A DNA stretch of 64,000 nt from a bacterium ADurb.Bin157 (GTDB taxonomy: Bacteria; Muiribacteriota; Ozemobacteria; Ozemobacterales; Ozemobacteraceae): NCBI GenBank assembly GCA_002070375.1, contig MWDD01000013.1, forward strand, positions 369 to 64,368, written 5' to 3'. Shown piece by piece: positions 5,305-44,609 of the stretch. Position numbers and translations under genes: made by a program. Below the pieces are notes generated by a model, which worked only from the letters and a program-made list of their open reading frames with translations, searched no databases and was not told where the DNA came from. The first letter of the stretch is position 1. Each line of letters begins with the position of its first letter.

Positions 5305-6186
5305 ATGAGACACTTTAAACACCTTGCTTTTTTGTTGATTATTTTATGCACAAGCCAACTTTTGGCTGTAAATTTCTCAAAAACGCTGGGCGATGCCGGC
5401 ATTGACGACGGCGGCTCATCGGCACCCGTTATACAAACAACAAAATCTGCTGCCGATCCAAGCGCAAACAAAGGTCTTGCCACCCTTTCAGGCAACGGAT
5501 TCGTAGGTGTATATTCTTCTCTGAATGTCAGAGATGCCGTTTGGGGCAACATAATCGGCAGTTTAACTAACAACGAACCGGTATCAATAATAGGGACCGA
5601 AGGCGACTGGTACAAAATCAGTTATCAAGGCGGCACAGGCTATGTACATGCCCGCTACATTTTCAACGCAAAAGACAAGCGCTACAGAGGGGATGAAGTT
5701 ACTTCCGCTAATCGTGGCGGTTCAGCCGAAGAAGTTATTCTCAATGTTCCCGGCACCGGAAGTTCACAAGCCAGAGTAGTAACTGCAGCGAATAGCTTGG
5801 TCAGCAAGTATTCCTCTCAAGGATCATTCCCTTATGCACCGGCAACTCAGGGCGGCTCACTCGGCTGCGCTCAAGTTGTGAGCACTGCTCTTAAAAACGC
5901 CGGGGTGCCCATAGGAGTTGATTTGTCCTGTATTTCCGTAAAAGGCAAACTCCAAAACATCGGCTATAAAACTGTTTCTGCTCCTCCGTTCCAAGCCGGA
6001 GACGTTATTTTTTGGTCGACATACGACAGAACCGGCGATGGCAGAAAAGACGCTGACACCCACATCGGTATTGTTATGACTTCAGGCAACAGTGCTCAAG
6101 CCATGAGTAACTCTTCGTCACAAAAACGCCCCAGAATACATTCAGCAACCTACGCACCGGTCACCACTGTCCTCAGAAAAGCATAA
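5305..6186 (+). CDS. Secreted cell-wall hydrolase: SH3b domain plus a papain-like (NlpC/P60 or CHAP) catalytic domain
   Basis: Signal peptide, an SH3b-like stretch (VYSSLNVRDAVWGNIIG...GDWYKISYQGGTGYVHARYI), a catalytic Cys context (GGSLGCAQVV) and a His context (DTHIGIVM). The SD AAGGAGA lies upstream. Confidence 0.6.
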   Translation: MRHFKHLAFLLIILCTSQLLAVNFSKTLGDAGIDDGGSSAPVIQTTKSAADPSANKGLATLSGNGFVGVYSSLNVRDAVWGNIIGSLTNNEPVSIIGTEGDWYKISYQGGTGYVHARYIFNAKDKRYRGDEVTSANRGGSAEEVILNVPGTGSSQARVVTAANSLVSKYSSQGSFPYAPATQGGSLGCAQVVSTALKNAGVPIGVDLSCISVKGKLQNIGYKTVSAPPFQAGDVIFWSTYDRTGDGRKDADTHIGIVMTSGNSAQAMSNSSSQKRPRIHSATYAPVTTVLRKA

Positions 6187-6196
6187 GGGATTTTAA

Positions 6197-7201
6197 ATGA
6201 ATAAGTCTTTAATTCTCGCACTGTTTTTTTCGGTCACCCTGGGATCAATCAGTTTCGGACAAATTTCCCTCGCCTACGGCGAGGGAAGCGAGAAACTGGC
6301 TTTTATAAACGAAAATCGTTTTCCAGGTCTTGAAGAGCCCGTTCCTTACGGGCCTTTGTCGTTTAGAATATCCGACAATCATTTCTGGGTCGCTGACAGT
6401 GTAGCAGGAAAAATTATTAAGGTTGACTTTAAAGGCAAAATCGTAAGAGAATTCGGTGCGCTTTCCACCGCAGCCAAAAAACCAAAGCCTGCTTTTAAAA
6501 ATGATCCTTGCCTTCAAATACTTATTGAAGACATTGCATTTGAAAAGGGTCCCTATGGGTCAGTTAAATCAGTTTGGGTAAGCGACAGTTTCGAAAACAA
6601 ACTCATAAAAATTGACACCACAGGAAAAATATTAAAAGAAATCAAGCACCCGGCATTCATACAACTCAGCAGAATAGAAATCGGACAAGGCGGACACATA
6701 TTTGTCGCCGACAAAGGCGCTCAAAAAATATTCATTTTTGACCACAAGTATAGTCTAATCGGAGCAGTTCACTGGGAATGGTCGGGCTTTGCAGTATCAG
6801 GTGCAGATGACAAGCTACATCGAGTTTTCTTTACCGAAGAATCCGGAAAACTTACATTAGTAACTACAGACACAAAAAATATAGTTTTACGAGAAATAGA
6901 GTTAGAACTCCCTATTCACTTAAACCCTGAGCTCTGGTGGGTCGACGAATTCAACGAAGATTTTGTGCTGACTTATACCCCAAAAACCGGTTTTGCAGGC
7001 AAATTTGTCGTTGTAAAAATCGGCTTCAACGGAAAAGTGAAACAACAATCAGAAATGGATGCTCCTATAGCTATGAATCGCTATATTGAACATTCAGACT
7101 TTGAAAAACTATGGATAGGCAAGGCCAACTTCAACGAAGCCCCCGAAGGAAAATTTGAAATCGTTCCTTTCAAATTTTCCGCAACGAACAACAGGAGGTA
7201 A
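6197..7201 (+). CDS. Secreted beta-propeller-like protein, paralog of the C-terminal half of the 12633-14135 protein
   Basis: Signal peptide. Repeated beta-strand motifs (FWVADSVAGKII, HIFVADKGAQKIFIFD). Clear aa and nt similarity to 13200-14135. Confidence 0.5.
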   Translation: MNKSLILALFFSVTLGSISFGQISLAYGEGSEKLAFINENRFPGLEEPVPYGPLSFRISDNHFWVADSVAGKIIKVDFKGKIVREFGALSTAAKKPKPAFKNDPCLQILIEDIAFEKGPYGSVKSVWVSDSFENKLIKIDTTGKILKEIKHPAFIQLSRIEIGQGGHIFVADKGAQKIFIFDHKYSLIGAVHWEWSGFAVSGADDKLHRVFFTEESGKLTLVTTDTKNIVLREIELELPIHLNPELWWVDEFNEDFVLTYTPKTGFAGKFVVVKIGFNGKVKQQSEMDAPIAMNRYIEHSDFEKLWIGKANFNEAPEGKFEIVPFKFSATNNRR

Positions 7202-7203
7202 TC

Positions 7204-7551
7204 ATGAAAAAGCTATCGATTTTCTTATCACTGTTTTTAATTTTATCATCAGTAGTGATTTACGCAGCAAAAGTCCCTACCCGCGGGAGGGTCTCGCCAA
7301 AAATAGGTGTAAACGTAAGAACAGGCCCCGGAACAAGCTATTCCAAAATCACTGCAATACCTTGTGGTCATGACCTTGAAATCATTGAGGTATCGGGCAA
7401 CTGGTATAAAATCGTTTACGGTTCGGTGACCGGTTATTCAATTGCTTCCGCGATAACAGTCACAGAGAGCAGAGAAGAAGATTCAGAAGACGACGATTCC
7501 GTAAGAAAGTTTTTGCCGACTTTGCTTTCTGTTGACCCGTCTACTCGATAA
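7204..7551 (+). CDS. Small secreted SH3b-domain protein
   Basis: 115 aa with a signal peptide and an SH3b-like motif (GVNVRTGPGTSYSKITAIPCGHDLEIIEVSGNWYKIVYG). Acidic C-terminal tail. The SD AGGAGG lies upstream. Confidence 0.55.
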   Translation: MKKLSIFLSLFLILSSVVIYAAKVPTRGRVSPKIGVNVRTGPGTSYSKITAIPCGHDLEIIEVSGNWYKIVYGSVTGYSIASAITVTESREEDSEDDDSVRKFLPTLLSVDPSTR

Positions 7552-7566
7552 TGCTAGAATAAACGT

Positions 7567-9711
7567 ATGTCTAAGCTGTCCACACAAATTAACTTGTCAC
7601 ACTCCCGAAAAGGCAGTGTAACAGTTATAGTCATAGGTATTTTTGTTGCACTGCTTGCAATGTTGGGAGGTTTTTTAAAATCTGCAACTCAACGGCAATA
7701 CACAACAAAAAAGCTTAACAAGGTTTTACTAGCCAGAGAATTTGCGACTTCTCTGGCTACTTTGTCTTGTCACAAATTAAAAGAAAAAGACTTAAAAACC
7801 CCTGACAGCAAACTTATACAGGCCCTTAAAAAACCTATAGAAGAGATGGCTGCAAAAGAGACGCAAGACATTTCGGCTTCTGATCTCAAGTCACTATTTG
7901 GTACTCTCATAGACGACCTAATAAAAGCAAACAATGATTTACAAAAACTTAATTACAAAATTAGTTGGTCAATAGACAAAAATGATTTTAGGCCGATATT
8001 AGCAGCATATCCACGTGAAAAAAAAGGTGTCATAAGACTTTTCGTATCTGTAAATTATCTTGCTCCGGGCTCAACCCAAAAAATAGAGGAAGATTATCTT
8101 TACTCAATAAAAGCTAAAGTCACATCTAATTTGGTTCCTGTGCTATCTAAATTCACCCTTTACATTGAAGATGCTCTTGGCACAGACGCAAATAGCGAAG
8201 AACGCTTTAACACGCTAAAAGTCGACTCTCGCGGACAGCTCAAAAACTCTTCGGAATATAAACCATGGATACTAAAAAATGGGCCGAACAAAGCCGAAAC
8301 AAACTATAAAAGCTATGCAGAAAAACCCATAGGAATAGTATACTTAGGCTCAAAAGATACTTCAGGCACCCCAAAACAAATAAACTTAGGACTTTCACGT
8401 TCCTGGAAAGAACCCGGAGAATGTTCCGAAGGCTTCCATTTATTGGCAGAAGGTCGAGGCGACGGGCTTTACACCGTTGAGAAACTTGACGAAATATATC
8501 AAATGAACTGGGAAATCGGGTTGGCCGATGACGAAGACGGAGATGCCAAGTTTTGGTTTGAGCTTATATACAGAGGCTTTTATAACATGTCTAAAGTCAG
8601 CTCTATATTGAAACTTTATGGCGCCGGCACCGGAGACAATGTTTCGCCTACTCTCGTCTTGGGAAACGTAAAATCCAGAACTTTATGCGCAAGGGCTTAC
8701 AAGGGTAACTTTGAGGGATCTCCGGAATATGGTCCTCTTCATTTTTTAACCGAACAAGAAATGTTTGACGACTCATCGGGGGCCTCAGAAGACACGCCAA
8801 GCACATATGAACACTACTGTTTTCAGCCTTTTTCCGGAAGTTATAAAAACAAATATGGCAGCCCCCTAACTTTTGAAATCTATCAAGAAAAATACTCAAG
8901 CACTCTCTGGGAAGTCCCATACAACCGTGGCCTGTTGTATATGGCCACAAACTTTCAAGACAGACACCCCGAAAACTCGGGCGCAATAGGACAAACAGAC
9001 CAACTGTACAAATTTGCGACCGGTTCTTCCCTAGACAAATCAGCGATGACAGCTGTTCCTGAGCCATTTAACAAAATATACAATATTGATTCATTAACTG
9101 ACATGAATGATTTTCTTGACCCTAAAAAAGTTTTTGCGGAAGAACAAAGATACTCTCACATCATAGACCTGACAAAATCAAAAACAACTCTGGAAAAAGA
9201 ACTAAAAAGACTGCATTTACTTGATGAACAAGAAACAAATCTGAATTTAAACGGTTGGATCTATATTAAGTCATCTGCTCCATTAACATTGCCCGCAAAA
9301 AGCCTGAATATAACGAGCAATGGAGGTCTTGTGCTTGAGAAAGGCAATATTTCAATCAGAGGACCTATAATTTCAAAAGGCGGAGATTTTATTCTACAAT
9401 TGATGGCCCTAGACGGAAATATAGAAATAGACACATCAGGAAACCTTAGCGTAGGCTTGACGGCAGCTTCAAAATCATCCGGTGACAATGGACAAGTTAA
9501 ACTGATAGGCGGTGCCACCGGCAACCAAATTACAGTCAAGGGAAATGTGGCAATGAAACAGATTAAGTCTGTTAAGGACCACATGGCAAGAGGGCTAAAG
9601 CTTGAGTATTTCTCTCCCCTGGCCGCGTTACCCAATAATATAAGCCCAACCAACAATGAAGAGCCTCTTTTAATGTATTCGTTGGGAAATAATGCGGAGC
9701 TTATTGAATAA
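7567..9711 (+). CDS. Giant PilX_N-like minor pilin / pilus tip-associated protein (714 aa)
   Basis: The N-terminus (HSRKG-SVTVIVIGIFVALLAMLGG) resembles the PilX N-terminal family: KG followed by a hydrophobic helix, with no Glu at +5. The large C-terminal region has beta-helix-like repeats (GGLVLEKGNISIRGPIISKGGDFIL). Two prepilin genes follow immediately. Confidence 0.5.
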   Translation: MSKLSTQINLSHSRKGSVTVIVIGIFVALLAMLGGFLKSATQRQYTTKKLNKVLLAREFATSLATLSCHKLKEKDLKTPDSKLIQALKKPIEEMAAKETQDISASDLKSLFGTLIDDLIKANNDLQKLNYKISWSIDKNDFRPILAAYPREKKGVIRLFVSVNYLAPGSTQKIEEDYLYSIKAKVTSNLVPVLSKFTLYIEDALGTDANSEERFNTLKVDSRGQLKNSSEYKPWILKNGPNKAETNYKSYAEKPIGIVYLGSKDTSGTPKQINLGLSRSWKEPGECSEGFHLLAEGRGDGLYTVEKLDEIYQMNWEIGLADDEDGDAKFWFELIYRGFYNMSKVSSILKLYGAGTGDNVSPTLVLGNVKSRTLCARAYKGNFEGSPEYGPLHFLTEQEMFDDSSGASEDTPSTYEHYCFQPFSGSYKNKYGSPLTFEIYQEKYSSTLWEVPYNRGLLYMATNFQDRHPENSGAIGQTDQLYKFATGSSLDKSAMTAVPEPFNKIYNIDSLTDMNDFLDPKKVFAEEQRYSHIIDLTKSKTTLEKELKRLHLLDEQETNLNLNGWIYIKSSAPLTLPAKSLNITSNGGLVLEKGNISIRGPIISKGGDFILQLMALDGNIEIDTSGNLSVGLTAASKSSGDNGQVKLIGGATGNQITVKGNVAMKQIKSVKDHMARGLKLEYFSPLAALPNNISPTNNEEPLLMYSLGNNAELIE

Positions 9712-10160
9712 TGCAGCAAATTTCAAACCCTTCCCGGGGATTCTCACTAACAGAAATCATGGTTGCCTGTTTAGCCCTTGGGATAATGCTTATCCCTGTT
9801 TTCATGATGTTTAGTCAAGGCTCAGCAGGAACAACGAAAAATCGAAATGATATACTTGCTCAGCAGCACGCAAGCAATCTTTTAGCGTATGCCACGTCTA
9901 TGAATTATGATGACACTTTTTTAAAAACCGGCTCGCAAGAAGTTAACGAGAAGAAGGTAAACAGCTCAGACGGAACAGAAATTGACTTAAGTATTTCAGA
10001 AGATATTTTCAAAAGATCAATGGAAATAAAAGAATATACTTTTCCCGGTTTTACTTACGCCTATAAACTTATAACTGTGTCGGTTAAATGGTCGCAAACA
10101 GGAGATAAAAAGACTGAAAACAATAGGGAAATTAAAATATCGGGACTCTTAAATAAGTGA
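9711..10160 (+). CDS. Prepilin-type (type IV pilin/pseudopilin-like) protein
   Basis: MQQISNPSRG|FSLTEIMVACL: a leader ending in Gly, then Phe, with Glu at +5. This is the N-methylation/cleavage motif. The start shares TAATG with the upstream stop. Confidence 0.7.
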   Translation: MQQISNPSRGFSLTEIMVACLALGIMLIPVFMMFSQGSAGTTKNRNDILAQQHASNLLAYATSMNYDDTFLKTGSQEVNEKKVNSSDGTEIDLSISEDIFKRSMEIKEYTFPGFTYAYKLITVSVKWSQTGDKKTENNREIKISGLLNK

Positions 10161-10168
10161 CAAAAAAA

Positions 10169-10696
10169 ATGAAAAAAGGTCTTACTTTAATAGAAATTTG
10201 CATAGGTGTTGTCATTGTTTCATTGCTGATGGTAACAATAATGAAACTTCTTGGAACAGGCATGAGCGGTTCTCAAAAAGGCTTGTCTCATCTCGCAAAC
10301 ATGGAAGCGGCTAGCATACTTATGTCACAAATCGAATATGATCTTATGCGAGCCTATGAACTCACAGATCCTCCGGTAGGTGAAAAATCTATATCTGCAC
10401 GTTGGAAAATGCTTACAGACGAAACTATTCCCGACACAACCGCTACGGTCACATATCAAAATCTCGACGAAGCCGTTAAACGCACACTCATTGAAGATGG
10501 TTCAACATTAGAACACACATATTGCAGAGGTCTTAAAACTGTTATAAGCTTTGAAAAAGTAAGATTCACTGATCCAAAAACCGGTGGTGAAAAACAGGGT
10601 CTATGGATAAATCTTTCGGTTGCATCGCCTAAGAAAATTTCGGGTGAAACTGAAAAGTTTGAACTAAAACGACTTATTATGTGTAAAAATTTCTGA
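10169..10696 (+). CDS. Prepilin-type (pseudopilin-like) protein
   Basis: MKKG|LTLIEICIGVVIV is a classical short leader with Glu at +5. The ORF track starts at the GTG at 10157. The ATG at 10169 gives the canonical leader. Confidence 0.7.
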   Translation: MKKGLTLIEICIGVVIVSLLMVTIMKLLGTGMSGSQKGLSHLANMEAASILMSQIEYDLMRAYELTDPPVGEKSISARWKMLTDETIPDTTATVTYQNLDEAVKRTLIEDGSTLEHTYCRGLKTVISFEKVRFTDPKTGGEKQGLWINLSVASPKKISGETEKFELKRLIMCKNF

Positions 10697-10711
10697 TGAA
10701 ATTATATTAAA

Positions 10712-12640
10712 ATGTTTTTGTTTAAAAATCTTTCGCTGAAATTAAAAACCCTAAGAGTACTAATCCCCAAGAGAGACCTAATAATTCTTTTTATTATGTG
10801 GTTCTTACTTGGTTATTTTTTTATCTTTTATCCTATTTTAACAAAAAATATTGATTATGAAATTATAGATAAAAAAATCAAGGTTAAGTCTCAATTCTTA
10901 AAAGACAACTTCAAAACAGATATACTCTTAGTGTCTATTGACAGCGAAACACTTTCAGAAACAGAGCATAAATGGCCATGGCCACAAGAGCATTGGGCTA
11001 AGATCATTAATGACATTAAAGAGAAAGGTAAGCCAAAAGCAATAATATTAGACATCTATTTTCAGGAAAGCAAGACAGAAAAGCCCCCCGAAAGCTTTAT
11101 TAAAGCTGTCAAAGCCCAAAGCAACACAGGCCTTGTCGCAATTTATGAAGAAAATGAAACCACCTTTGGAAAACAGATACTTATATCGCCACCGATAAAA
11201 GAAATTGATGAAGCTGCCGCATTTACGGGAATTTCTCAACAACCTATTGATGATGACGGCAAAATTCGAACAATGATATTGCATGATAAAAGAATCAATT
11301 ATAAGCATATAGCTATAGAGCTTTTAAATAATTGTAAAATTGATATTCCTAATTTATCTGTTTTTTCTGATATTCAAACTCCGGTAGCTTTGCTCGACTT
11401 TCCTGTTTCTTACAGAGGCTTAAATCAAATTAGCATAAATGATTTAAAAAACGACGATCGCAATTACGAGTTTTTAAAAGACAGGATTGTCATAATCGGT
11501 GCCACCGCAAGCATCTTACATGATTATCATCAGACTTCTATAGGTTTGATAAGCGGCCCCGAAATAATATGTAATACTGTTGAAACACTGGGCAGTTCGT
11601 TTCTTCAACTTCTGGACGATAGTATTTCAAACAGAATAATACATTACTTAGCCGGAGTTCTGATTGTAATGTTATTCTATTCAGATCTATTTAAACAAAG
11701 CTCCAAACAAGTATTAATTATATGGCTGATGCTGCCGGTTTTTTTATTTTTTTATTCATACTTTCCCAAAGCGCATCCCCCGATTGAATTAACATGGCTC
11801 GGGTATACAGCTACAGCCGCATTATTTGTGCTAATGATTCGAATTATTGAATTGGCCGACATAAGAGAACAATTGACAGAAGCAAGTATTTGCAGCGATT
11901 TCCAAAAAGGTCTTTTTCCTGAAAAAGGCTTAACAGACGAAAGCGGCATTTCGTGCTACGGCACCTGCATACCATATCAAAACGCAGGAGGAGACTATTA
12001 CGACTTCTTTAAGCTCAAAAACGGCAATATCTTTTATATTTTATGCGATGTAAGCGGCCATGGGATTTCCGCAAGTATGATTACGACTGTTGTGAAAAGC
12101 TTAGTAGTCATAGAAACTACGAATGATAATTTTAATATAGACAGTCTTTTCAATAAAATAAACTATGCCGTTTTAAATTTAACAAAACGAAAAAAAATGG
12201 TAACGATTGTTGGGGGAATCATCAACACAAAAAATTATGAAGTTTCAATTTCTTCTGCCGGTCATATTCCGGCAATTTTAAAACACGGCAATGGTTTTGA
12301 AGAAATAGCTCTACCCGCATATCCTCTCGGAGTTTACTCCACCGAAAGATTAAAAAAGGCTCAAACAGTTATAAAATTAGAAAATTTTAATAAACTTTTT
12401 TTCTATTCAGACGGTATAATAGAGGCAAGAGATTGGAACAACCAAGAACTGGGCTTTGATTCATTCTATAATGAAATAAACAATCTTCCCGAGATCGCAA
12501 ACAGTGAAGAATGTATCAAAATATTACTGAATAAGTTAAAGGAACATACAAAAGGCCGCGATTTTGTTGACGATGTATCATTATTGGTAGTAAGCTGTAG
12601 ACGTAAAGACGCTAAAAAGGAGACAAAAGAGAGTGATTAA
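10712..12640 (+). CDS. CHASE2 sensor domain / PP2C (SpoIIE-type) Ser/Thr phosphatase membrane protein
   Basis: TM1, then an extracytoplasmic domain with the WPWP motif and the RIVIIGATASILHDYHQTSIGLISGPEIICNTVETL stretch of CHASE2, then three TMs, then PP2C motifs (GGDYYDFF, LCDVSGHGISASM, YSDGIIEAR). Confidence 0.7.
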   Translation: MFLFKNLSLKLKTLRVLIPKRDLIILFIMWFLLGYFFIFYPILTKNIDYEIIDKKIKVKSQFLKDNFKTDILLVSIDSETLSETEHKWPWPQEHWAKIINDIKEKGKPKAIILDIYFQESKTEKPPESFIKAVKAQSNTGLVAIYEENETTFGKQILISPPIKEIDEAAAFTGISQQPIDDDGKIRTMILHDKRINYKHIAIELLNNCKIDIPNLSVFSDIQTPVALLDFPVSYRGLNQISINDLKNDDRNYEFLKDRIVIIGATASILHDYHQTSIGLISGPEIICNTVETLGSSFLQLLDDSISNRIIHYLAGVLIVMLFYSDLFKQSSKQVLIIWLMLPVFLFFYSYFPKAHPPIELTWLGYTATAALFVLMIRIIELADIREQLTEASICSDFQKGLFPEKGLTDESGISCYGTCIPYQNAGGDYYDFFKLKNGNIFYILCDVSGHGISASMITTVVKSLVVIETTNDNFNIDSLFNKINYAVLNLTKRKKMVTIVGGIINTKNYEVSISSAGHIPAILKHGNGFEEIALPAYPLGVYSTERLKKAQTVIKLENFNKLFFYSDGIIEARDWNNQELGFDSFYNEINNLPEIANSEECIKILLNKLKEHTKGRDFVDDVSLLVVSCRRKDAKKETKESD

Positions 12641-14135
12641 ACAAAAACTGCTGTGGGTTATAATTGTTATCGGGTTCGGTTTACCATTTTTAATCGGTTG
12701 CGGAAATATCGAACCAATAGCCGAATTATCTGATGTACAGGGTACCGTCTCAGTAAAATCTAAGACTGCTCAAAACTTTTCGACCGGGATTGCAGGTAAC
12801 AAAATTTCTGCCGGCGACGTTGTAAAAACCGAAAGAGACTCGGAAGCCACAATTAAATTTTTAACCGATGAAACAGAGATTACTTTAAAAAGTAACACTT
12901 ACCTCGAAATTGATAAGGTTGCGGAATTTGAAATCAAACAAAAAAGCGGAATCGCCACATATAAAATCAGCCCTCAACAAAAGAATATAAAAATCACCAC
13001 CCCACAGGGTATGGCAACTGTTTTAGGAACAGTATTAACAATTGATGCCAAAGAAAATGAAACAACAGTTTCTGTTGAAAAGGGTAATGTTGATTTTACA
13101 AAAAAAGACGGTTCTAAAATCAATATTACCGAAGGAAGAATGTATTCTACAGGCTTTAAAGAAAACAAAGCCCGCAAAATACTCAAAACTCCGGTTTTAA
13201 AGCTTGGAACCGATGAAGTAGCGCTCTTCTACGGAGAAGGCAAAAACAAAGTAAGTTATATAAACGAAAACAAATACCCGGGGATTGAAGAACCGATTCC
13301 TTTCGGCCCTCTGTCTTTCAGAATAATCGACAATACTTTTTGGGTCGCCGACAGCGTAGCCGGAAAACTAATTCAACTGACTCGAGAAAATAAGCAGCTC
13401 AGAGAAATATCTGTAATACCATCCAATCAACCCAAACCCACGCCTGCATTTGAAAATGATCCTTGTCTGCAGGTTCTTATTGAAGACTTTGCGCCGGTAA
13501 GAGACGAAAACGGCACCGCCTATTCTTTCTGGGTTGCCGAAAGTATGGAAAACAGACTAATTAATGTAGACTTCACCGGAAAAATTCTTCACACCATAAC
13601 AAACCCCGACTTTAAGCAACTTTACAAGGTTGAAATTGGCAAAGGCGGACATCTTTTTGTAGCCGACAAAGGAGCTCAAAGAATCTTTATCTATGATAAA
13701 GAACTAAAATTTGTAGAAGCTGTAAGTTGGGAATGGTCCGGATTTGCTGTTTCAGGTGACGATGATGTTCTTTACAGAATATTTTTTACCCAAGAGACCG
13801 GTTTGCTCACACTCGTAGCTCAAAACAGAGAAAAGCAAATTTTGAGAGAAACCGAGCTCCTTTTGCCGATTCATTTGAATCCTGAACTTTGTTGGGTTGA
13901 CGAAAGCAAACAAGAATGCTTGATTACCTACACGCCAAAAACCGGATTTGCAGGCAAATTTATGGTGGCACTGGTGGGCTTTGACGGCACAGTAAGAAAA
14001 ACCACCGAAATGACTGCTCCCATAGCAATGAACAGATATATAGAAAGATACAATAACAAAGTATGGATTGCCGATGCTGATTTTAACACTGCTCCGGAAA
14101 CACTCTTTAAAATTAAACCTTTTAAACTGTATTAA
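12633..14135 (+). CDS. Lipoprotein with an N-terminal FecR-like domain and a C-terminal beta-propeller-like domain (paralog of 6197-7201)
   Basis: Lipobox LIGCGN. FecR-like beta-sandwich stretch (ISAGDVVKTERDSEATIKF...TLKSNTYLEI). The C-terminal 300 aa are collinear with 6197-7201. Confidence 0.55.
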   Translation: MIKQKLLWVIIVIGFGLPFLIGCGNIEPIAELSDVQGTVSVKSKTAQNFSTGIAGNKISAGDVVKTERDSEATIKFLTDETEITLKSNTYLEIDKVAEFEIKQKSGIATYKISPQQKNIKITTPQGMATVLGTVLTIDAKENETTVSVEKGNVDFTKKDGSKINITEGRMYSTGFKENKARKILKTPVLKLGTDEVALFYGEGKNKVSYINENKYPGIEEPIPFGPLSFRIIDNTFWVADSVAGKLIQLTRENKQLREISVIPSNQPKPTPAFENDPCLQVLIEDFAPVRDENGTAYSFWVAESMENRLINVDFTGKILHTITNPDFKQLYKVEIGKGGHLFVADKGAQRIFIYDKELKFVEAVSWEWSGFAVSGDDDVLYRIFFTQETGLLTLVAQNREKQILRETELLLPIHLNPELCWVDESKQECLITYTPKTGFAGKFMVALVGFDGTVRKTTEMTAPIAMNRYIERYNNKVWIADADFNTAPETLFKIKPFKLY

Positions 14136-14157
14136 TTACTAAATTTAATGTTAGAAT

Positions 14158-14198
14158 ATGGTTGCCCCAAAATATGGGCAACCATTTTTTTATGCTAA
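14158..14198 (+). terminator. Rho-independent terminator-like hairpin
   Basis: ATGGTTGCCC-caaaatat-GGGCAACCAT followed by TTTTTTT, immediately after the stop at 14135. It lies inside the 5' end of the ORF-track call 14162-16291. Confidence 0.55.
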
Positions 14199-16291
14199 CA
14201 CTAATACCCAAAAAAGGCGTTGCTCTTGCAGTAGCCATATCAATAAGCAGCATTTTGATGTTGCTCGCTGTTGCCATGTTTTCGTTTATCAATAACCAGC
14301 ATTTGGGAATAAATGCTATTGTTAATGGTGAAATTGCACATTTTTTAGCTGAAGCAGGCATAAATAGATGTATTCCGGAAATTAGAAATTCAATAAGCAG
14401 CGCATTGTCGACAAACCCCAACAACAAAAAACTCAGAGAAATACTATTAACACCGGGCAAAGTAAAAGATACCGATATAACAAAATTACTTGGAGGCTCC
14501 TGGAACAAAGAGCTGGAAAAGTTTGCGAAAGAAACTGATGAAACCGCAGCAATTGAAGTCAAGATTTGGCTCAGAGAATTAGAAAATTCCGAAACCGACA
14601 AAAAGGTTTGGGCTGACCCTATTGCACGAAGAGGATTCGTTGTGATCGAATCTGAAGGTCGTTACAAAACAGGAAAAAGAAAAATAGCAATAAAACGCCT
14701 AATCAACATAACAAACATACTTCCCGGATTTATGTCTAAATTTACTATGTTCTTAACTGAGGCAGGCAATAACGGAACAAAAAAATACAATATAATAAAG
14801 AATGATTACAAGGGAATGGTTACAGACGGCCCAAAGCCCCTGATTTTATATAATCATCTTACGCCTGAAACACCTTCGGCCAATTCTGATAATTGGAACT
14901 TTGATGAAGCCCTTAAAAGCGAACAAAATGAAGACATATGGAAAAACAGAGGCTGGATATGGATTGGCGGAGACAAGATAAGGCTTAATCTTTGCTCAGG
15001 CGCCGGAGATTTGGGTGAAATTTTTCATTTTTACGATGTCAGTAAAGTGAATGATTTTTCTCCCATAAGGTTTTCTACTCCTGAAAATCTTTTGCCTTCA
15101 TCATTTAAAAATATAAATAAAATACCCTGGGACAAAACAGCATCAATAATCAGAACCGTATCATATAAATTCGGACACAGTTTTGTATTAGACAGCTTTC
15201 ACGACAGAAGCAACCGTAAAAGTTCCGATGCCATGTATGAAGGCGGAATTCTATCAACAGAAGAATTGCATGAGCATGGCTCAAAATCATCGGTATTGCA
15301 TCTTTATGGCGATGCCCGCAAAGGCTTCCAATCGAGAACCAAGGTTTTTGGTAATGTATATTCGGCATTTATTCGTTTTTCAAATCTTGAAATAGAGCCT
15401 AAAGAACCGGATGTTTCAAACATCTTTAAGTCAGTTTTCCCCCCACCTTTATATCTTTTACGGTCAATAATTGAAAAAGATTACAGCAATTCAATCGATA
15501 TAAAAGAAATAAATCAAAGAATTTGTGGCGGTCCAATGTTAAAAACAGGCATGTTATTTAACAATTATTCAGAATATTCTTCCTTTATGAGCAAGATTAT
15601 TGAACAACCTTATGTTTATTCCTACAACAACATGCAAGAAATTTATACCAATAAACCTAATCGTCATTTTCCGCCATCTAAAACAATTTTATCTCTTGAT
15701 ACAGATTCTAACATCTCGCTTCGACGGGATAACCATACTTTTTTTGAGGGGAAACCCTCAGCTTCAACAGCACTACAAACTATTGAAAGTCGTGTTCACC
15801 TTGAAGTAGGAAATATAAAAGAGTTTTGGGACAAATTTTTAAATGAGGACCAAGAATTAGACCTAAATGCTGTTGTAAGAATCAAGAACAGTGAAAATCT
15901 CGATTTTGCAGTCCCCCCCTCCAACCTTCCTCAGCCTCTTAAAGTCAGAGGCGGCGGCGCAATTTTACTGGATCAGGGAAGCATAGATCTAAGAGGGGTT
16001 CTGTGTAATTCAGCAAATGAAGCTCTTACAATAGCCTCGACCTACGGCACAAACATATATTTTTCCTCAAACCTTCCTAATCATGTCAATATCATAGCGC
16101 CAAACGCAGAATTGTCTTACAGCTCAAAATTTATATTATTTGGCAGTCTTTGTGCAAAAAACATATACGTTGATAACCGTTTTCAGGGTGGGAAAATTTA
16201 TTTTAGACCTGAAACAGCCCCCGACTCAAGCTTTTCAGATTCTTTTTATAAAGTTTACGTGAGCACCAAGGATTCATATTGGAATGAATAG
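14192..16291 (+). CDS. Giant PilX_N-like minor pilin / pilus tip-associated protein, paralog 2 (about 700 aa)
   Basis: The likely start is MLTLIPKKG-VALAVAISISSILMLLAVAM (PilX_N-like), downstream of the hairpin. The ORF track starts at 14162. The C-terminus has beta-helix-like repeats (GGGAILLDQGSIDLRGVL...). Two prepilins follow. Confidence 0.5.
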   Translation: MLTLIPKKGVALAVAISISSILMLLAVAMFSFINNQHLGINAIVNGEIAHFLAEAGINRCIPEIRNSISSALSTNPNNKKLREILLTPGKVKDTDITKLLGGSWNKELEKFAKETDETAAIEVKIWLRELENSETDKKVWADPIARRGFVVIESEGRYKTGKRKIAIKRLINITNILPGFMSKFTMFLTEAGNNGTKKYNIIKNDYKGMVTDGPKPLILYNHLTPETPSANSDNWNFDEALKSEQNEDIWKNRGWIWIGGDKIRLNLCSGAGDLGEIFHFYDVSKVNDFSPIRFSTPENLLPSSFKNINKIPWDKTASIIRTVSYKFGHSFVLDSFHDRSNRKSSDAMYEGGILSTEELHEHGSKSSVLHLYGDARKGFQSRTKVFGNVYSAFIRFSNLEIEPKEPDVSNIFKSVFPPPLYLLRSIIEKDYSNSIDIKEINQRICGGPMLKTGMLFNNYSEYSSFMSKIIEQPYVYSYNNMQEIYTNKPNRHFPPSKTILSLDTDSNISLRRDNHTFFEGKPSASTALQTIESRVHLEVGNIKEFWDKFLNEDQELDLNAVVRIKNSENLDFAVPPSNLPQPLKVRGGGAILLDQGSIDLRGVLCNSANEALTIASTYGTNIYFSSNLPNHVNIIAPNAELSYSSKFILFGSLCAKNIYVDNRFQGGKIYFRPETAPDSSFSDSFYKVYVSTKDSYWNE

Positions 16292-16715
16292 CAAAAGCGG
16301 CATATCATTAATTGAAATAGTAGTTGCTATCGGTTTATTAGCAGCTGTTTTGGCTCCGGTATTTTTAATTTTTTCATCGGGCAACCGAAATATGGAAATG
16401 ACAGAGGCAGAGTTCAGAGCACATAATTGCGCTATAGAAATAATGGAACAAATCATTTCTCTTCCTTACAAACATATAAAATCCGGCACCTATACAAGCT
16501 CTGACGTTAAAAATGGCTTAAATTTCGCGAATTCTGCAATACTCTATAAAATCAGTGAAAACTATGAATCAGAACTCAAGGTAGAAGATATGAAAGAAAA
16601 GGGCAAAAGTATTTTTAAAAAAGTCAGCGTGAAAGTATCATATCAAGCGACCAAAAACTCTGCATCAAAGCGCAGCTTTACAATTAAAACTATGGTTGCA
16701 AATGAAACAAACTAA
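16284..16715 (+). CDS. Prepilin-type (pseudopilin-like) protein
   Basis: MNSKSG|ISLIEIVVAIGLL: leader ending in Gly, Glu at +5. Confidence 0.7.
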   Translation: MNSKSGISLIEIVVAIGLLAAVLAPVFLIFSSGNRNMEMTEAEFRAHNCAIEIMEQIISLPYKHIKSGTYTSSDVKNGLNFANSAILYKISENYESELKVEDMKEKGKSIFKKVSVKVSYQATKNSASKRSFTIKTMVANETN

Positions 16716-17238
16716 AAAAGCCTTCACATTGGTTGAAATTATAGTTGTGTCAGCAATATCCGCAGTTTTTATAACTACGGTTGTAATGCTGTTGATTAAT
16801 TTCAGAAAAGGTTATTCTAAAAGTGAATACAGCGGAATTCTTATGCAAGAAACAGCTCTTTTAATTGCTCACCTCAGAACTGATCTTAACAATGCGGTTG
16901 ACAAACAGATTTACACTTCAGAGAATCAGCTTATGTTTAACGCCTACAATAACAGCAAAGGAATAACAGAACCAATTGTTTACACCCTCGAAAAAGCCCC
17001 CCAAGGCCGTATATTAACAAGAAAAGAGGGTAACGGAAAAGCGCGCACAATTGTAAAAAGCAATGTTGCCTCATTGACATGGCAAACAAGTTTAGATGTA
17101 TATGAAACGAAGCCTGTTCCCGTAAAGAGATTAAGCATTGATTTAGATATTCTATTAGAAGCACCGAACATGCCTGAGAAAAGCTTTCGCCTTAGAAGTG
17201 CCATATTTCCGAATAGAGTGAATAAGCAAATCAATTAA
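16696..17238 (+). CDS. Prepilin-type (pseudopilin-like) protein
   Basis: MQMKQTKKA|FTLVEIIVVSAI: Ala rather than Gly at -1, Glu at +5. Confidence 0.65.
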   Translation: MQMKQTKKAFTLVEIIVVSAISAVFITTVVMLLINFRKGYSKSEYSGILMQETALLIAHLRTDLNNAVDKQIYTSENQLMFNAYNNSKGITEPIVYTLEKAPQGRILTRKEGNGKARTIVKSNVASLTWQTSLDVYETKPVPVKRLSIDLDILLEAPNMPEKSFRLRSAIFPNRVNKQIN

Positions 17239-17432
17239 TAATGAGGCGGCTTTTCGCAATGAGGTCTGTCCTCTTCAAGAGGGGAAAGAGGTATTTTCCC
17301 TTCTAAATGTGACAAATGCTTTTTCAAGCGATCTATTATTTGCTGTTGTTCAATAACTACATTATTTAAGTCTTCAATATATCTTTCGAGGTAAATAATT
17401 CTTTTTTCAATTTCAAATAATCTGTTTTCCAT
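17235..17432 (-). CDS. slyX: SlyX family protein
   Basis: MENRLFEIEKRIIYLERYIEDLN... is a coiled coil ending PPHY, as in SlyX. The ORF track extends to 17453 (MRQKRKK-). The start is uncertain. Confidence 0.55.
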   Translation of the reverse strand: MENRLFEIEKRIIYLERYIEDLNNVVIEQQQIIDRLKKHLSHLEGKIPLSPLEEDRPHCEKPPHY

Positions 17433-20400
17433 TTTTTTCCTTTTCTGCCTCATTAGCTACAAGGTTATTATTAAAAACCAAAATAACCAGCGTCATATCG
17501 TCTTCAGGGTCGTTATTCTCAGTATGAAGCTTGTATTTGTTATATATATTATTATAGAACAAAGCCGGATTAATATCATAAGAATCAGCTATAATCTTTT
17601 GGAATTGTGAGTATCCAAGGTCTTCACCCGCAGTATTTCTGGACTCAATTATTCCATCAGAATAAAAAATTACTGCATCGCCTTGTTCTAACTCAAATGA
17701 TTTTTCGGTATAGACAGTTTTTTTAAATGCTCCCAGTACCGGCGAAGCAAACTTAAGCTCTTCAACTTCATTAGTCTTCTTTCTGTAAATATATGGTGAA
17801 CAACCTCCTGCGTTTGCATAGAGTGCCTTCCCCTCTTCACTGTTAAATACCACATATTGGAATGTCATAATTTTTCTTTGCTGCTTATTTTTTGACTGCA
17901 AAATCAGTTGATGCAAGAGATTTAATATTTTTTCCGGTGAATTTTGATATTCCTCACTACACAGAATACCTGCTTTCGCCATAGCCATAATTAAGGCAGC
18001 ACCTATTCCGTGCCCGGCCACATCACCAATTAAAGCCGCAAAATATTTATCATTGATTTGAAAATAATCAAAATAGTCTCCTCCTATAGCGCTCATGGCA
18101 ATACTTTTTCCATATACGGCAAAAGAGTTATGGAAAAAACTTTCCTTGGGAAAAAGACTCTCTTGAACAACTTTCGCGGTTTCAACTTCAGCTAAGCCAA
18201 CCATTATGTTGTTAAATATATTTCCCACTTCTCCGAATTCATCTTTATCCAGATTAGTGATTCTATGTGAAAAATCTCTGTTTTCTATTGCTATTGCCCC
18301 TTTTTGCAACTCGCTTAAGGGTTCTAAAAAACTTTTTGCAAGTATTTGAGCCAAACTGATGGCTAAAACAGTATTTAATAGTACATACAGGGTCAGCTCT
18401 GTTTTCTGCTTTCCGATAATTTTTTCTGCATTTTTAATTGGATAAAGGCCTATCAGCCTGTAGGCATTTAAATACTCGCCGTTAAAAGCCACAATAACGT
18501 AATCTTGGCCATTATAATTAATAAATTCGATTTCTTCTGACTGTGATTTCCCTGTTTTTTTAACATAGTCAATAAGGACATCGTTTTCATCTTTAATATT
18601 TCCAAAAAATTCACGTGTCGCCAAATTATAGACAACAAGTTTAATATTATGTTCATTTCTGTTGGCATCAAATAAAGATGTTTTAAGAAAATCAGCTTGC
18701 AGGCGATTACCTAACCATAAACACACCAGTGCATAGTCTAATTTATCGGGCGTATGAACCGGCACAAACTTAAAATAAGTCATGTTTATATTTTTTTCAA
18801 AACCCCAAGGTTTAATATCATCAACATTAGTCATCAATCCATTTGTTATCTCAATAAAATTAAGCTGCAATAAAGATTCTGCCACGAGTTCTAACCTTGC
18901 GACCAAATGTCTCGGCAACTCTTTGCGATTCAAATCACCAATAATTTTTTTGGCAACTAAGTTGAGTAATTTTAATTCATCATAAGCATACTTCGATAAA
19001 GTTCTGTTAAATGTGCTTTTTTCTTTGTCGAGGACAGGGTTATCAATCGAGCCTTTGTAGTATATAAAACCGTCGCTTGAACCGACATAGCTGGTTTCGC
19101 TGCCAATTACATAAGATTTATCCACATACATATTATCAATCAAATATTTCATGGAATCGCTATTAAATTGTTTATCAAACCCATTTTTTTTAACGTGCTC
19201 TCCCCATTTTTTATAGAATTTATCTAAATCAAAACAAATATTCTTTAAAAACGATCTAAATTTTCTGTCATAGCTTTTCAAAGCATCATTTGTCATGTTC
19301 TGAGCCGATGAAATCAGCACATGTCTCTTATGAATATTATGCTCATTTGAAATCATGATCATGGCAACCAATGGAATTCCGGTTGAAAACCAAAAAAGGA
19401 AAGCGAGCTTTAACCTAATTGAAAACTTTCCGGGTATTTTGTAAACAATGCTTCTCCAAGTGTAAAATAAAAACGGTAACATTACTAAACCGTAAATTAC
19501 AGCACCAAACAGAGAATATAGGTTAATAATTTTATCAGAATATTTTCTTTTTACAGATGTAATGAATCTGAACTCGGGAGATATGTAGCTATAACCATAG
19601 TATCTGTCAGGATCTAAAACAAAATCGCTCTTCAATTTTTCGAAATTTTCAATTAGTGTATTATCAAAAATATCATCAAGACTTTTATTGTTAACCCAAA
19701 GATTCTTTTTATTATCTCGGCAATCCACTATTCCGACACTTATATCCGGATATGTGTTTTTAGAGTTTTTAACTATATATTTCAAAGATGTGAAATTTTT
19801 AAAAATATCATAATTAAAAAATATCAGAACCATAGCATTTTCTAATGCGTAAGCGGCGAAAGGAGGTTTTTGCATCGCACTGTCAGCCCAAGCCAGGGAA
19901 AAAGATACCGCGTCTCTTGTTCCAACTAATGCATCTTCGATTATCTGCGGCCCAAGTATTTTTTTACTGCGATCTAAATCTACTCTGCCCCTTAGTTTTG
20001 AATAATGTATTCCATTTGATGCAAAATATGGGGCATAATACAAAAGAATATCATGAACACTTTTCCACTCAGCCTCGTTGTATTCGGTCTCAAATGTTTT
20101 ATCCTGAATTTTTCCTGATGAATTCCAAACAATAAAGTCTATTTCATTATCAAAAGCTTTTTTTTGATTATGCATCCAAGTAATCAAAGGGCCTACCGTT
20201 ATATTTTTACTGCCTAGTTTTGCAAAGTTTTCATAAAAGAATCTACCAAAGAAATCCTCTTCATTTTTTGCCTGTTTAGCATTATTGATTAATTGTTGAT
20301 GACGCATTTTATAATCAAAAAGACTATTTTGTTCGTCCATAGTAAAGTATCTGTTTATAGCAAAAAATGACAAAACAGCCGGAATACCCACAAGGAATAT

Positions 20401-23371: not shown

Positions 23372-23376
23372 ATTTT

Positions 23377-29176: not shown

Positions 29177-29258
29177 AATCACTCTACTATTTAATATCTC
29201 ACTCAACACACCCATTCTAACACATGTAATGGCTGTTAGCCACAAAACACTTAATTAG

Positions 29259-33687: not shown

Positions 33688-33772
33688 AAGTAACCTCCGA
33701 CTGGTATTCTCGCAAGAATACCATTAAATATATGCTTTTCCAACATTTTTTTACTCATAATCAGTTTATATA

Positions 33773-33781
33773 TGTTAGAAT
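33773..33781 (+). promoter_or_regulatory. Extended -10 element TGTTAGAAT
   Basis: The same TGnTAGAATA motif occurs at 7552-7561 and 14149-14158. It is followed by the SD AAAGGAAG and the ATG at 33814. Confidence 0.4.
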
Positions 33782-33813
33782 ACTGTAGCAGTATGCGCAA
33801 AAGGAAGTATATT

Positions 33814-44606: not shown

Positions 44607-44609
44607 AAC

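Follow-up and report, generated by a model that had tools for sequence, protein, structure and literature searches.

Two sets of genes resembling minor pilins stand one behind the other in the 64-kb window examined here (the whole 64,000-nucleotide stretch of DNA that was analysed), which comes from a bacterium of the phylum Riflebacteria, each headed by a giant protein of about 700 residues. They raise the question of what such sets might build in a window in which we found no filament machine. The initial annotation described two collinear modules on the + strand, A and B, and both this arrangement and all of its ORF coordinates were confirmed. Its interpretations of how the modules arose and of what they encode fared less evenly, as described below.

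Gene content of the two modules

5305..6186, + strand: exported protein, SH3b plus a C-terminal Cys-His domain resembling CHAP/NlpC-P60 (SH3_3 E 1.6e-11)
6197..7201, + strand: propeller A, a secreted, NHL-type, six-bladed beta-propeller (Pfam NHL 25.3 bits)
7204..7551, + strand: small exported SH3b-domain protein (SH3_3 E 1.3e-13, 51 bits)
7567..9711, + strand: giant A, 714 aa, predicted ComZ-like minor pilin of the K/PilX position with an ice-binding-protein-type beta-solenoid
9711..10160, + strand: prepilin A1, PilV/GspI-like, 149 aa (motif RGFSLTEIMVA, Glu5)
10157..10696, + strand: prepilin A2, PilW/GspJ-like, 179 aa (motif KGLTLIEICIG, Glu5)
10712..12640, + strand: CHASE2 sensor carrying a PP2C (SpoIIE) phosphatase domain (CHASE2 E 6e-33, SpoIIE E 3e-27)
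12633..14135, + strand: lipoprotein, fusion of FecR and an NHL propeller, propeller B (FecR 44.1 bits)
14158..14185, + strand: 10-bp hairpin with a 7-U tract 3' of it, from a terminator scan, in the gap upstream of giant B
14192..16291, + strand: giant B, a second predicted ComZ-like solenoid pilin (ORF open from 14162, 709 aa)
16284..16715, + strand: prepilin B1, PilV/GspI-like, 143 aa (motif SGISLIEIVVA, Glu5)
16696..17238, + strand: prepilin B2, PilW/GspJ-like, 180 aa (motif KAFTLVEIIVV, Glu5)

The genes that had been assigned to Module A, at 6197-10696, are real, but synteny places its start one gene earlier, at 5305. A counterpart of this additional gene precedes the propeller gene in loci L001, L007 and L058, and L059 carries a LysM version of it; L007 belongs to a relative with 61-65% identity. 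Module A consists of six genes, namely the SH3b/CHAP-like gene, the NHL propeller and the small SH3b gene, followed by the giant and its two prepilins. From its sequence, the product of the first gene is a putative peptidoglycan binder and hydrolase: its Pfam matches to CHAP (E 0.0056) and NlpC_P60 (E 0.028) are both sub-threshold, and its matches in the PDB are SH3b domains (E 1.8e-11) and, weakly, the endolysin Lys2972 (E 0.013). The small SH3b gene is kept immediately 5' of giant A in L003, L007 and L058.

Propeller A has a hydrophobic N-terminal signal segment (a signal peptide) and exceeds the Pfam NHL cut-off of 20 bits, and the profile of its family (A7) matches the TRIM2/3 NHL propellers in the PDB at E 1e-14. 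Among its 69 homologues, four carry an organism name, and all four are Riflebacteria or a probably mis-binned metagenome-assembled genome. We also asked whether the propellers are PilY1-like and rejected this in view of their NHL type: they are about 330 aa long with a plain signal peptide, match only NHL and Phytase-like models in Pfam and not PF05567, and have NHL propellers as their PDB profile matches.

The CHASE2-SpoIIE gene and the FecR gene that follows it form a conserved pair, found also in L007, L043, L055 and L058. The second member is indeed a FecR-propeller lipoprotein, as the initial annotation had it, with a FecR match (PF04773, cut-off 24 bits) at residues 62-153 and a lipobox, LIGC, read straight from the sequence. 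Propeller B forms its C-terminal 306 aa and is 58% identical to propeller A (E 6e-137), which bears out the proposed paralogy of the two propellers. The FecR-propeller fusion is limited to the small clade of the window, and in a neighbor-joining tree without support values the fused propellers are sister to the solo propellers of that same clade. Propeller B is a recent copy, gained by the FecR gene in this lineage.

Giant proteins and their prepilin partners

A prepilin motif occurs in the four small proteins and in no other ORF of the window; two of them belong to each module, as had been proposed. Their N-termini show a short basic leader, Gly or Ala at -1 and a hydrophobic residue at +1, with Glu in position +5 and a stretch of about 20 hydrophobic residues. 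In terms of the N_methyl model (PF07963, cut-off 21.2 bits), only the Module B proteins reach the threshold: B2 scores 23.4 bits, and 20.3 bits against TIGR02532 (cut-off 16.3 bits), and B1 lies exactly at the cut-off with 21.2 bits, while A1 falls just under it with 20.6 bits and A2 is a weak, sub-cut-off match at 16.5 bits. The A1 and A2 families (A4 and A5) each have Glu5 in 39/39 members, with N_methyl matches at E <= 0.01 in 30/39 and 34/39, respectively. Other models place the proteins more loosely, with weak matches of A1 to PilV and GspH, of A2 to NF007848 ("prepilin peptidase-dependent protein") and of B2 to ComGF and HpsC; B1 matches XpsI (GspI) at E 3.6e-4. The small pilins of the two modules match each other at E 2e-8 and E 1e-3. 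Among type IV pilins of solved structure, the N-termini are matched by the J-like family profile and, weakly, by the I-like one. The prepilin-motif scan of the window revealed no FimT/GspH-like fourth core pilin in either set.

Each giant gene lies directly 5' of the gene for a 143-149-aa prepilin, whose ORF overlaps the giant's stop codon. In direct pairwise comparison, giants A and B are barely similar (E 2e-4). Their family profiles align by hhalign over 576 columns (probability 99.9, E 1.3e-32), and the two are 16-21% identical in a joint family alignment. The giants are thus full-length homologues at profile level only, and it is at this level that their supposed paralogy stands. Both have a basic leader, an invariant Gly and a single N-terminal hydrophobic segment, and both lack Glu5, as do GspK and PilX. 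For giant B, the start is probably the ATG at 14192, which gives the leader MLTLIPKKG and lies 3' of the conserved hairpin.

The giants had been called PilX_N-like, a description that the PilX_N model does not sustain: PF14341 matched neither window giant at E <= 0.1 and only 2/53 members of the giant family, with a best E of 0.019, which is noise level. T2SSK (PF03934) likewise left the window giants unmatched and found 1/53 family members at E 0.082, again at noise level. Pfam and NCBIfam as a whole returned no match for the giants, and neither giant family gave a hit when its sequence profile was searched against the PDB. The giants are instead assigned to the pilins by their N-terminal motif, together with the predicted fold, and not by an HMM.

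The structural models of the giants are confident, with a first helix of 58-64 residues. They combine a prepilin-like N-terminus without Glu5 and a predicted pilin fold, as in GspK-type pilins, with a predicted triangular beta-solenoid of the ice-binding-protein type (DUF3494-like), as in ComZ. When the predicted models were compared as whole proteins with PDB structures, ComZ came out first or close to first for both giants. Secondary structure follows the order of a long helix, three long strands, the solenoid and a last strand at 702-706 or 696-704. Judged from this order only, the solenoid may be inserted in the pilin sheet, between the penultimate and last strands. At the level of single domains, it is ice-binding or adhesin-type solenoids, rather than pilins, that the fold matches most strongly. 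Together with the missing Glu5 and the lack of any pilin HMM match, this would suit a reading in which the giants are inner-membrane-anchored or periplasmic solenoid proteins, such as adhesins or envelope scaffolds, which have a plain signal anchor and merely adjoin pseudopilin genes. We consider this very unlikely. The assignment of the giants as minor pilins of the K/PilX position, each with two prepilin partners, is supported.

Conserved triads and a linked filament machine

The conserved unit is a triad consisting of the giant, a pilin of about 145 aa and a pilin of about 180 aa. It occurs throughout the Riflebacteria and in one Wallbacteria genome, with several copies per genome. We know of no cultured member of the Riflebacteria, and a literature search on this phylum and pili gave no relevant paper. 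The giant family, which comprises 1081 representatives when clustered at 50% and divides into at least three deep paralogue families, has no Pfam model and is annotated as "hypothetical protein"; the giant A and giant B families are each spread across the Riflebacteria. A triad was present at every giant-family locus with a downstream flank, including more than 45 species-representative loci, the giant A loci and the one Wallbacteria locus. Homologues of B1, 3' of giant B, and of B2 are present at nearly every locus. Of the four-gene unit for which a check of synteny had been suggested, the triad part is conserved; outside the window's lineage, the B unit does not include the propeller.

This distribution bears on how the two modules arose. 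The initial annotation saw an ancient duplication of a whole functional unit, and the collinear gene order, together with the presence of a paralogue of every component in the other module, would be expected if a complete unit of propeller, giant and two pilins had been duplicated once. However, divergence is unequal, with the propellers at 58% identity and the giants at 16-21%; the fused propellers are sister to solo propellers of their own clade; no propeller accompanies the giant B triads of about 45 other genomes; and the A and B triads are about 140 kb apart in one complete genome. These findings contradict a single block duplication, which is, in our judgement, extremely unlikely. The history is instead composite, in that the split between giants A and B is ancient while the propeller duplication and FecR fusion are recent.

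A conserved association of the triad with a large sensor protein was also considered. It was dropped because the N-terminal sensor domains of the HAMP-PP2C proteins of the window and of the HAMP-cyclase proteins that L006 and L040 encode 3' of giant B are not demonstrably homologous; the two groups resemble each other in the TM2/HAMP region only.

In agreement with the initial annotation, no pilus ATPase, platform protein, secretin, prepilin peptidase or major pilin was found in the 64-kb window. The Pfam scan covered 41 ORFs of at least 150 aa outside the cluster and omitted a few, such as 33772-34236 and 49683-50144 (about 155 aa), and phmmer searches with GspD to GspM and GspO of E. coli as queries, 11 proteins in all, gave no match in the window. 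In relatives, genes for an ATPase, a platform protein, a major pilin and a PilM-like protein lie next to giant B; the region upstream of L006 was reached by a metagenome scan with the PilM-like protein as query. Loci of the Ozemobacteraceae type run from a TPR gene through PilB/GspE, GspF, G, H, I, J, K and a PilM-like gene, then further to three more pilin-like genes, giant B, I and J, all within about 17 kb and on one strand except for two genes. A third giant paralogue lies divergent from this machine operon. A GspH-like gene is present in the operon itself, and neither a secretin nor a prepilin peptidase was seen beside it. L061 and L074 are among the loci with such a machine. The position of the B triad directly 3' of the machine operon in relatives offers an answer to the missing machinery in the window. 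The idea of a filament-tip cassette that relies on machinery encoded elsewhere is plausible in this light, and such dependence is supported by a link that comes from other lineages and concerns giant B.

What kind of machine this operon encodes is relevant to a further alternative, in which the triads supply a type II secretion pseudopilus, not a surface pilus, with different tips, each K-I-J-type cap selecting or pushing a particular cargo, and with the NHL propeller, the SH3b protein and the SH3b/CHAP-like hydrolase as that cargo. The operon has the classical type II order E-F-G-H-I-J-K-L/M-like, a GspG-like major subunit and no adjoining PilT, and the best NCBIfam match of its platform protein is GspF, at 316 bits. 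Furthermore, the pilin domains of the ComZ type resemble type II pseudopilins (PMC6561018), and three exported proteins consistently precede the Module A triad. On the other hand, the ATPase scores higher with PilB (642 bits) than with GspE (596 bits) and has an MshEN c-di-GMP-binding domain, which is typical of pilus ATPases; the cluster has no secretin; the giant B triads of most genomes have no co-encoded exported proteins; and a cap with a solenoid of about 700 aa is known only from surface pili, namely ComZ and cyanobacterial PilX. We regard secretion tips as an unlikely alternative.

A candidate tip complex and its known relatives

The reading we favor, to which we assign a probability of about 0.6, is that each module is a self-contained set of three minor pilins that forms the tip or priming complex of a type IV filament machine encoded outside the window. 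It draws on sequence motifs, predicted folds, homology and conserved gene order. Under this model, the giant, the PilV/GspI-like pilin and the PilW/GspJ-like pilin would enter the inner membrane via their N-terminal hydrophobic helices, and prepilin peptidase would cut all three after the conserved Gly. Their alpha-1 helices could then bundle into a heterotrimeric cap comparable with GspK-I-J and ComZ-PilA2, which would prime polymerization of the major (pseudo)pilin by a PilB/GspE-GspF machine that this organism presumably encodes elsewhere. The giant, without Glu5 and too bulky for the shaft, would come to lie at the distal tip, where its exposed beta-solenoid may act as a binding or "plug" element. 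As ancient paralogues, the A and B sets most likely would give one machine two tips or filament types. The accessory genes would not encode filament subunits; Module A may add exported peptidoglycan-binding and hydrolase-like proteins and the NHL propeller, and the CHASE2-PP2C and FecR pair could provide sensory or regulatory input.

The closest parallel is ComZ, a GspK-like pilin with an ice-binding-protein-like solenoid that binds the GspI-like PilA2 and has been argued to occupy the tip of the Thermus thermophilus competence pilus (PDB 6qvi; PMC6561018). As predicted for the giants, ComZ combines a hydrophobic helix at the N-terminus with a GspK-like pilin domain and a large triangular beta-solenoid, and its gene adjoins genes for GspI/PilV-like and PilW-like pilins. 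Sequence similarity between them is not detectable, however. Each giant exceeds ComZ in length by about 150 residues and has an additional region of mixed alpha/beta structure, at about residues 200-560. The genes here run in the order X-V-W, a PilA1/FimT-like gene is absent, and there are several paralogous sets per genome.

A second parallel comes from cyanobacteria, in which each of two distinct filaments is primed by its own minor-pilin set and the PilX solenoid has been proposed to be a tip plug (bioRxiv 10.64898/2026.02.12.705559). As may be the case in the giants, the PilX-position pilins of these sets, PilX_Com and the HpsA-like PilX_EPS, are interrupted by an ice-binding-protein-like solenoid. 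Further shared traits are co-evolving PilX-PilV pairs, at least two alternative sets per genome, which most likely serve one machine here as well, and the lack of a PilY1 homologue, and the HpsC pseudopilin model is faintly matched by the 180-aa pilin of the window. The cyanobacterial sets are four-membered (FimT-PilW-PilV-PilX), whereas those described here are three-membered and come from a different phylum, and the likeness shown is one of architecture. NHL propeller, SH3b, CHAP-like, FecR and CHASE2-PP2C accessories have not been described for them.

Compared with GspK-GspI-GspJ (XcpX-V-W; PDB 3ci0, 5vtm), in which the GspK insertion is alpha-helical and about 100 residues long, the giants carry a predicted solenoid. 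Their genes are arranged K-I-J, not I-J-K, the T2SSK model fails to match, and the core operon does not include the triads, some of which have no linkage to it. In Myxococcus xanthus, as Treuner-Lange and colleagues reportedly found in 2020, three minor-pilin/PilY1 clusters supply several interchangeable priming or tip complexes for one type IV pilus machine. Those clusters, like Module A, encode a beta-propeller protein with minor pilins, but there PilY1 itself is the large tip protein and belongs to another propeller family, whereas the NHL protein here is small and separate.

In view of these parallels, the suggestion of a previously undescribed surface structure was overstated, since the architecture matches ComZ and the cyanobacterial solenoid PilX sets. 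The gene sets are an unannotated variant of known priming sets with a solenoid tip pilin, not a new kind of machine. Even so, a large family of "hypothetical proteins" gains a name and a testable role, and the class of solenoid-bearing PilX/ComZ tip pilins is extended beyond Thermus and cyanobacteria. The triads also represent a natural system in which one filament machine is apparently served by several swappable three-protein tip sets. We found no description of a pilus system with the pairing seen in the A set, of cell-wall-binding and hydrolase-like proteins and an NHL propeller with minor pilins, and this pairing could hint at the ligand of the filament.

A bolder extension, which we advance only as speculation and judge quite unlikely, is that the triads are interchangeable "warheads" of one c-di-GMP-controlled machine, expanded mainly in the Riflebacteria. 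The A type would then be a new functional class in which a solenoid tip, a dedicated exported NHL propeller, SH3b proteins and a CHAP-like cell-wall hydrolase could attach to and breach the peptidoglycan of other cells, in predatory or epibiotic contact, or could define cargo-specific tips of a secretion pseudopilus. The CHASE2-PP2C/FecR sensor might in that case switch between tips.

At the level of RNA, the window gave no hit to Rfam families or tRNA models. Terminator-like sites across the cluster were overall not above chance (13, with 10.7 expected), and of these we retained the conserved hairpin at 14158 alone. This hairpin has a predicted folding energy of -20.4 kcal/mol (z -4.27) and recurs in L055 and L007, where the loop varies and the stem is kept, L007 showing a single G-U change. 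In form it resembles an intrinsic terminator or attenuator.

Two pilin cassettes in one gene run

Twelve genes on the + strand of the window form one compact run (5305-17238) with gaps of at most 56 nt and four overlapping junctions, and every ORF named in the initial annotation was recovered at its coordinates.

Features of the gene run at 5305-17238
5305 (start of Module A), +, SH3b/CHAP-like protein, from the gene order common to the window and the related loci L001, L007 and L058
6197-7201, +, signal sequence and NHL-type beta-propeller (propeller A; Pfam NHL, 25.3 bits, cut-off 20)
7204-7551, +, SH3b protein (E 1e-13)
7567-9711, +, giant A, 714 aa (nothing matched in Pfam or NCBIfam)
9711-10160, +, first prepilin-motif protein of Module A
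10157-10696, +, second prepilin-motif protein of Module A
10712-12640, +, CHASE2 sensor fused to a PP2C (SpoIIE) phosphatase, between the modules (Pfam)
12633-14135, +, lipoprotein (lipobox LIGC) with FecR domain (44 bits) and propeller B
14162-16291, +, giant B, 709 aa (no family match)
16284-16715, +, first prepilin of Module B (prepilin motif)
16696-17238, +, second prepilin of Module B (above the N_methyl and TIGR02532 cut-offs)

When all ORFs of the window were scanned, the prepilin motif was confined to the four small proteins. Their homologues, from about 50 loci, have canonical class III signal peptides with an invariant Glu5 (39/39 sequences in each family), and N_methyl matches 30 of the 39 I-like and 34 of the 39 J-like family members. 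The J-like family profile matches type IV pilins of solved structure at their N-termini; the I-like profile does so weakly (E 0.007-0.3). Size and faint XpsI and PilV matches hint that the ~145-aa proteins are PilV/GspI-like; size and faint matches to ComGF, HpsC and the NF007848 "prepilin peptidase-dependent protein" hint that the ~180-aa proteins are PilW/GspJ-like.

The organism is a diderm, with LpxA/C/D, BamA and Skp encoded in the window, and the names that its homologues bear place it in Candidatus Riflebacteria (Rifleibacteriota). Four tandem paralogues occupy the - strand at 17413-29245 (969-1018 aa, 26-35% pairwise identity). Each combines four hydrophobic segments with a HAMP domain and ends in a PP2C (SpoIIE) phosphatase. 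The first of them runs tail to tail with the end of Module B, and at least three such genes stand at the same place in L007, a locus of the window's own clade that stops inside the third. A multihaem c-type cytochrome (52438-53484; Cytochrome_C554 and C7 matches), unrelated to the pilin finding, lies beside thioredoxin/peroxiredoxin-like genes.

Family and predicted fold of the giant proteins

Compared pairwise, giants A and B are scarcely similar (E 2e-4). Homologue searches returned 65 proteins for giant A and 91 for giant B; apart from a stray PF00496 entry on one partial protein of 431 aa, these carry no Pfam domain. An alignment of the two family profiles covers their full length (hhalign probability 99.9, E 1.3e-32, 576 columns), so the giants are true yet ancient paralogues. 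The joint family alignment gives them 16-21% identity, and each family is phylum-wide. At E <=1e-3 a joint profile recovered 1081 representatives of clusters built at 50% identity; at E <=1e-30 the number is 267. Most of the best 150 of the 1081 are full length (~700 aa).

AlphaFold2 models built from the family alignments are confident for both giant A (pLDDT 88.9, pTM 0.86) and giant B (pLDDT 87.5, pTM 0.82). Each model opens with a single helix of 58-64 residues, continues in long antiparallel strands and forms a regular beta-solenoid near residues 560-680 before one final strand. Foldseek ranked ComZ first, weakly, for giant B. ComZ has been described as a GspK-like pilin domain with an inserted ice-binding-protein-like solenoid; it binds the GspI-like pilin PilA2 and has been argued to cap the pilus (PMC6561018).

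Each giant has one hydrophobic segment, at its N-terminus. In both families this end comprises a short basic leader, an invariant Gly and ~22 hydrophobic residues, with no Glu at +5, which is the pattern of GspK and PilX. The label "PilX_N-like" in the initial annotation therefore holds in spirit, for putative K/PilX-position pilins, but not by the HMM it named: PilX_N matched neither window giant and, of 53 family members, only 2 (best E 0.019). A system of this kind is already known from GspK-I-J, ComZ and the cyanobacterial PilX sets, whereas the extra region of ~300 residues is the giants' own and is new. Also new are the unannotated giant family itself, centred on Riflebacteria with several deep paralogue branches and one member found in Candidatus Wallbacteria, and three-member X-V-W sets without an H/FimT-like pilin.

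The conserved triad and the history of its layout

A giant B profile scan of one genome per GTDB species yielded 48 loci, which lie in MAGs of Riflebacteria except for a few whose bin names are odd. Riflebacteria-type genes filed under Candidatus Avigastranaerophilus, Candidatus Methylomirabilis and Erysipelotrichia bin names (L015, L017, L024; proteins P0019, P0338) probably represent mis-binned or mislabelled MAG contigs. Every one of the 48 loci that has a downstream flank shows the order giant B, I-like, J-like prepilin. The corresponding order follows giant A in L001-L004, L007 and L058, and the Wallbacteria locus L056 has a giant-I-J triad too. The triad, rather than the four-gene module proposed initially, is therefore the conserved unit. 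The propeller is part of the A unit only.

The window, L001, L007 and L058 share the six-gene order SH3b/CHAP-like, propeller, SH3b, giant A, I, J (SH3b is missing in L001), and Module A therefore begins at 5305. These conserved A-type accessory genes, encoding the NHL propeller, SH3b and CHAP-like proteins, are a new element. In one MAG the propeller stands away from giant A, paired instead with a LysM version of Module A's first gene, and ~140 kb separate the A unit from the B triad in OZ223236, a complete genome. At locus L003 the giant A triad is flanked by two tandem GalT-like genes and a Peptidase_C92 gene (7480-9513 and 18467-20053); their window counterparts lie at 43563-45611 and 55692-57308, 30-40 kb from the giant A triad, a displacement that indicates rearrangement around the A unit.

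The propeller profile (41 homologues) matches TRIM2/3 NHL propellers at E 1e-14, and propellers A and B are 58% identical across 306 aa (E 6e-137). Giant B has an adjacent propeller in the window's own clade alone (L007, L055), where it is fused to FecR; this lineage-specific fusion, adjoining the CHASE2-PP2C sensor, is likewise new. In a neighbour-joining tree without support values, the FecR-fused propellers are sister to the solo propellers of the same clade, which points to a recent propeller duplication, in contrast to the depth of the giants at 16-21% identity. The pairing of a CHASE2-PP2C gene with a FecR gene after it recurs elsewhere (L043, L058), and the window's A unit shares its upstream neighbours Lactamase_B, DUF364 and M42 peptidase with L001. 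The layout is best read as an ancestral A unit alongside which the CHASE2-PP2C/FecR pair and B triad arrived, with FecR later capturing a copy of the neighbouring propeller.

A stem-loop with a U-run lies just upstream of giant B (14158-14185; -20.4 kcal/mol, z -4.27), with homologues at L055 4457-4483 and L007 9885-9913. The 10-bp stem (6 G-C pairs) is kept in sequence among the three, with one G-U change in L007, while the loop differs in all three; the U-run follows in the window and L055. Its role may be that of a terminator or attenuator, or else of a site for processing or binding, and its presence suggests that transcription of the B triad can be uncoupled from that of the genes before it. 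The hairpin likely shifts the start of giant B to 14192.

The filament machine and a proposed mechanism

Pfam searches of 41 ORFs of at least 150 aa outside the cluster, which covered all such ORFs but a few of ~155 aa, turned up no assembly ATPase, platform protein, secretin, major pilin or prepilin peptidase in the 64-kb window, and phmmer with E. coli Gsp proteins gave no window match, in agreement with the initial view that pilus machinery is absent here. The accompanying idea, that the cassettes rely on machinery encoded elsewhere, is borne out by Ozemobacteraceae-type relatives (L006, L029, L036, L040, L046), where the B triad ends a PilB/GspE-GspF-G-H-I-J-K-PilM-like cluster with all but two genes on one strand. 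With the PilM-like protein as seed, a scan of metagenomes gave the full layout in many contigs: TPR, PilB/GspE, GspF, major pilin-like G, H, I, J, K and the 580-aa PilM-like protein (PilM_2, E 4e-5), then two small proteins, TPR, two opposite-strand genes, three pilin-like genes in I-J-K order, and giant B, I and J. We take the cassettes to belong to a type IV filament system that has its core genes elsewhere.

In Ozemobacteraceae-type loci the three small pilin-like genes (p213, p209, p248; L006 7994-10004 and homologues) directly precede giant B, so that three I/J/K-type sets lie within one 17-kb region. A third, more distant giant is divergent from the PilB/GspE operon, upstream of it, and giant-family genes therefore stand on both flanks of the machine.

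Third giant branch
L060/L061 1-2178, L065 103-2619, L069, L074, L079, L084, L087, L097, L099, -, giant paralogue of ~838 aa (838 aa beside the machine operon; hhalign)

It matches the joint giant profile (hhalign probability 98.9, E 2e-17) and shares the leader-Gly-hydrophobic N-terminus; the edges of these loci fall short of its own downstream genes.

The main rival reading makes the filament a secretion pseudopilus, with the co-encoded exported proteins as its cargo. The E-F-G-H-I-J-K gene order of the machine speaks for this, and the platform protein scores highest as GspF. The ATPase, however, is PilB/MshEN in character, scoring 642 bits as PilB and 596 as GspE and carrying an N-terminal MshEN-type c-di-GMP-binding domain (L061 4483-6252; 66.7 bits against a cut-off of 38), and no secretin was seen near the machine operon. 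The MshEN domain implies second-messenger control of filament assembly.

The motifs, predicted folds and homology are established, as are the fact that giant, I and J strictly occur together and the physical linkage of one giant family to a filament-machine operon. GspK-I-J, ComZ-PilA2 and the cyanobacterial sets serve as analogues from which a mechanism can be outlined. The giant, I and J would be cleaved by prepilin peptidase and assemble a cap via their alpha-1 helices, and this cap would prime polymerisation of the major subunit. The solenoid would remain at the distal tip as an adhesin or "plug", and the A and B sets might specify alternative tips or filament types. For cyanobacteria, a preprint (bioRxiv 10.64898/2026.02.12.705559, February 2026) reports solenoid PilX proteins and two core sets for two filaments, with no PilY1, exactly the logic proposed here by analogy.

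In most Rifleibacterium-type genomes the B triad has moved to another neighbourhood that is just as conserved. In ~25 species (L005, L008-L028, L039, L044, L049, L053) the fixed order is FBP aldolase, TPR and HEAT proteins, STAS, flagellin, triad, the conserved uncharacterised proteins d380 and d451, and HrpB, so that the B triad adjoins a flagellin gene, not pilus genes. The protein d380 (~380 aa, without a Pfam match; L005 13195-14337 and homologues, ~35 loci) comes straight after the giant B triad in Rifleibacterium-type and Ozemobacteraceae-type genomes alike. No homologue occurs in the window, and d380 may be an extra partner of the B set that was lost or relocated in the window's lineage. 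At the Wallbacteria locus L056, the neighbours of the triad on the opposite (-) strand (13172-19353) encode a GspG-like N_methyl protein of 325 aa (E 4e-9) and a protein of 1727 aa without a Pfam match, with TadE and Tad genes 8-10 kb upstream.
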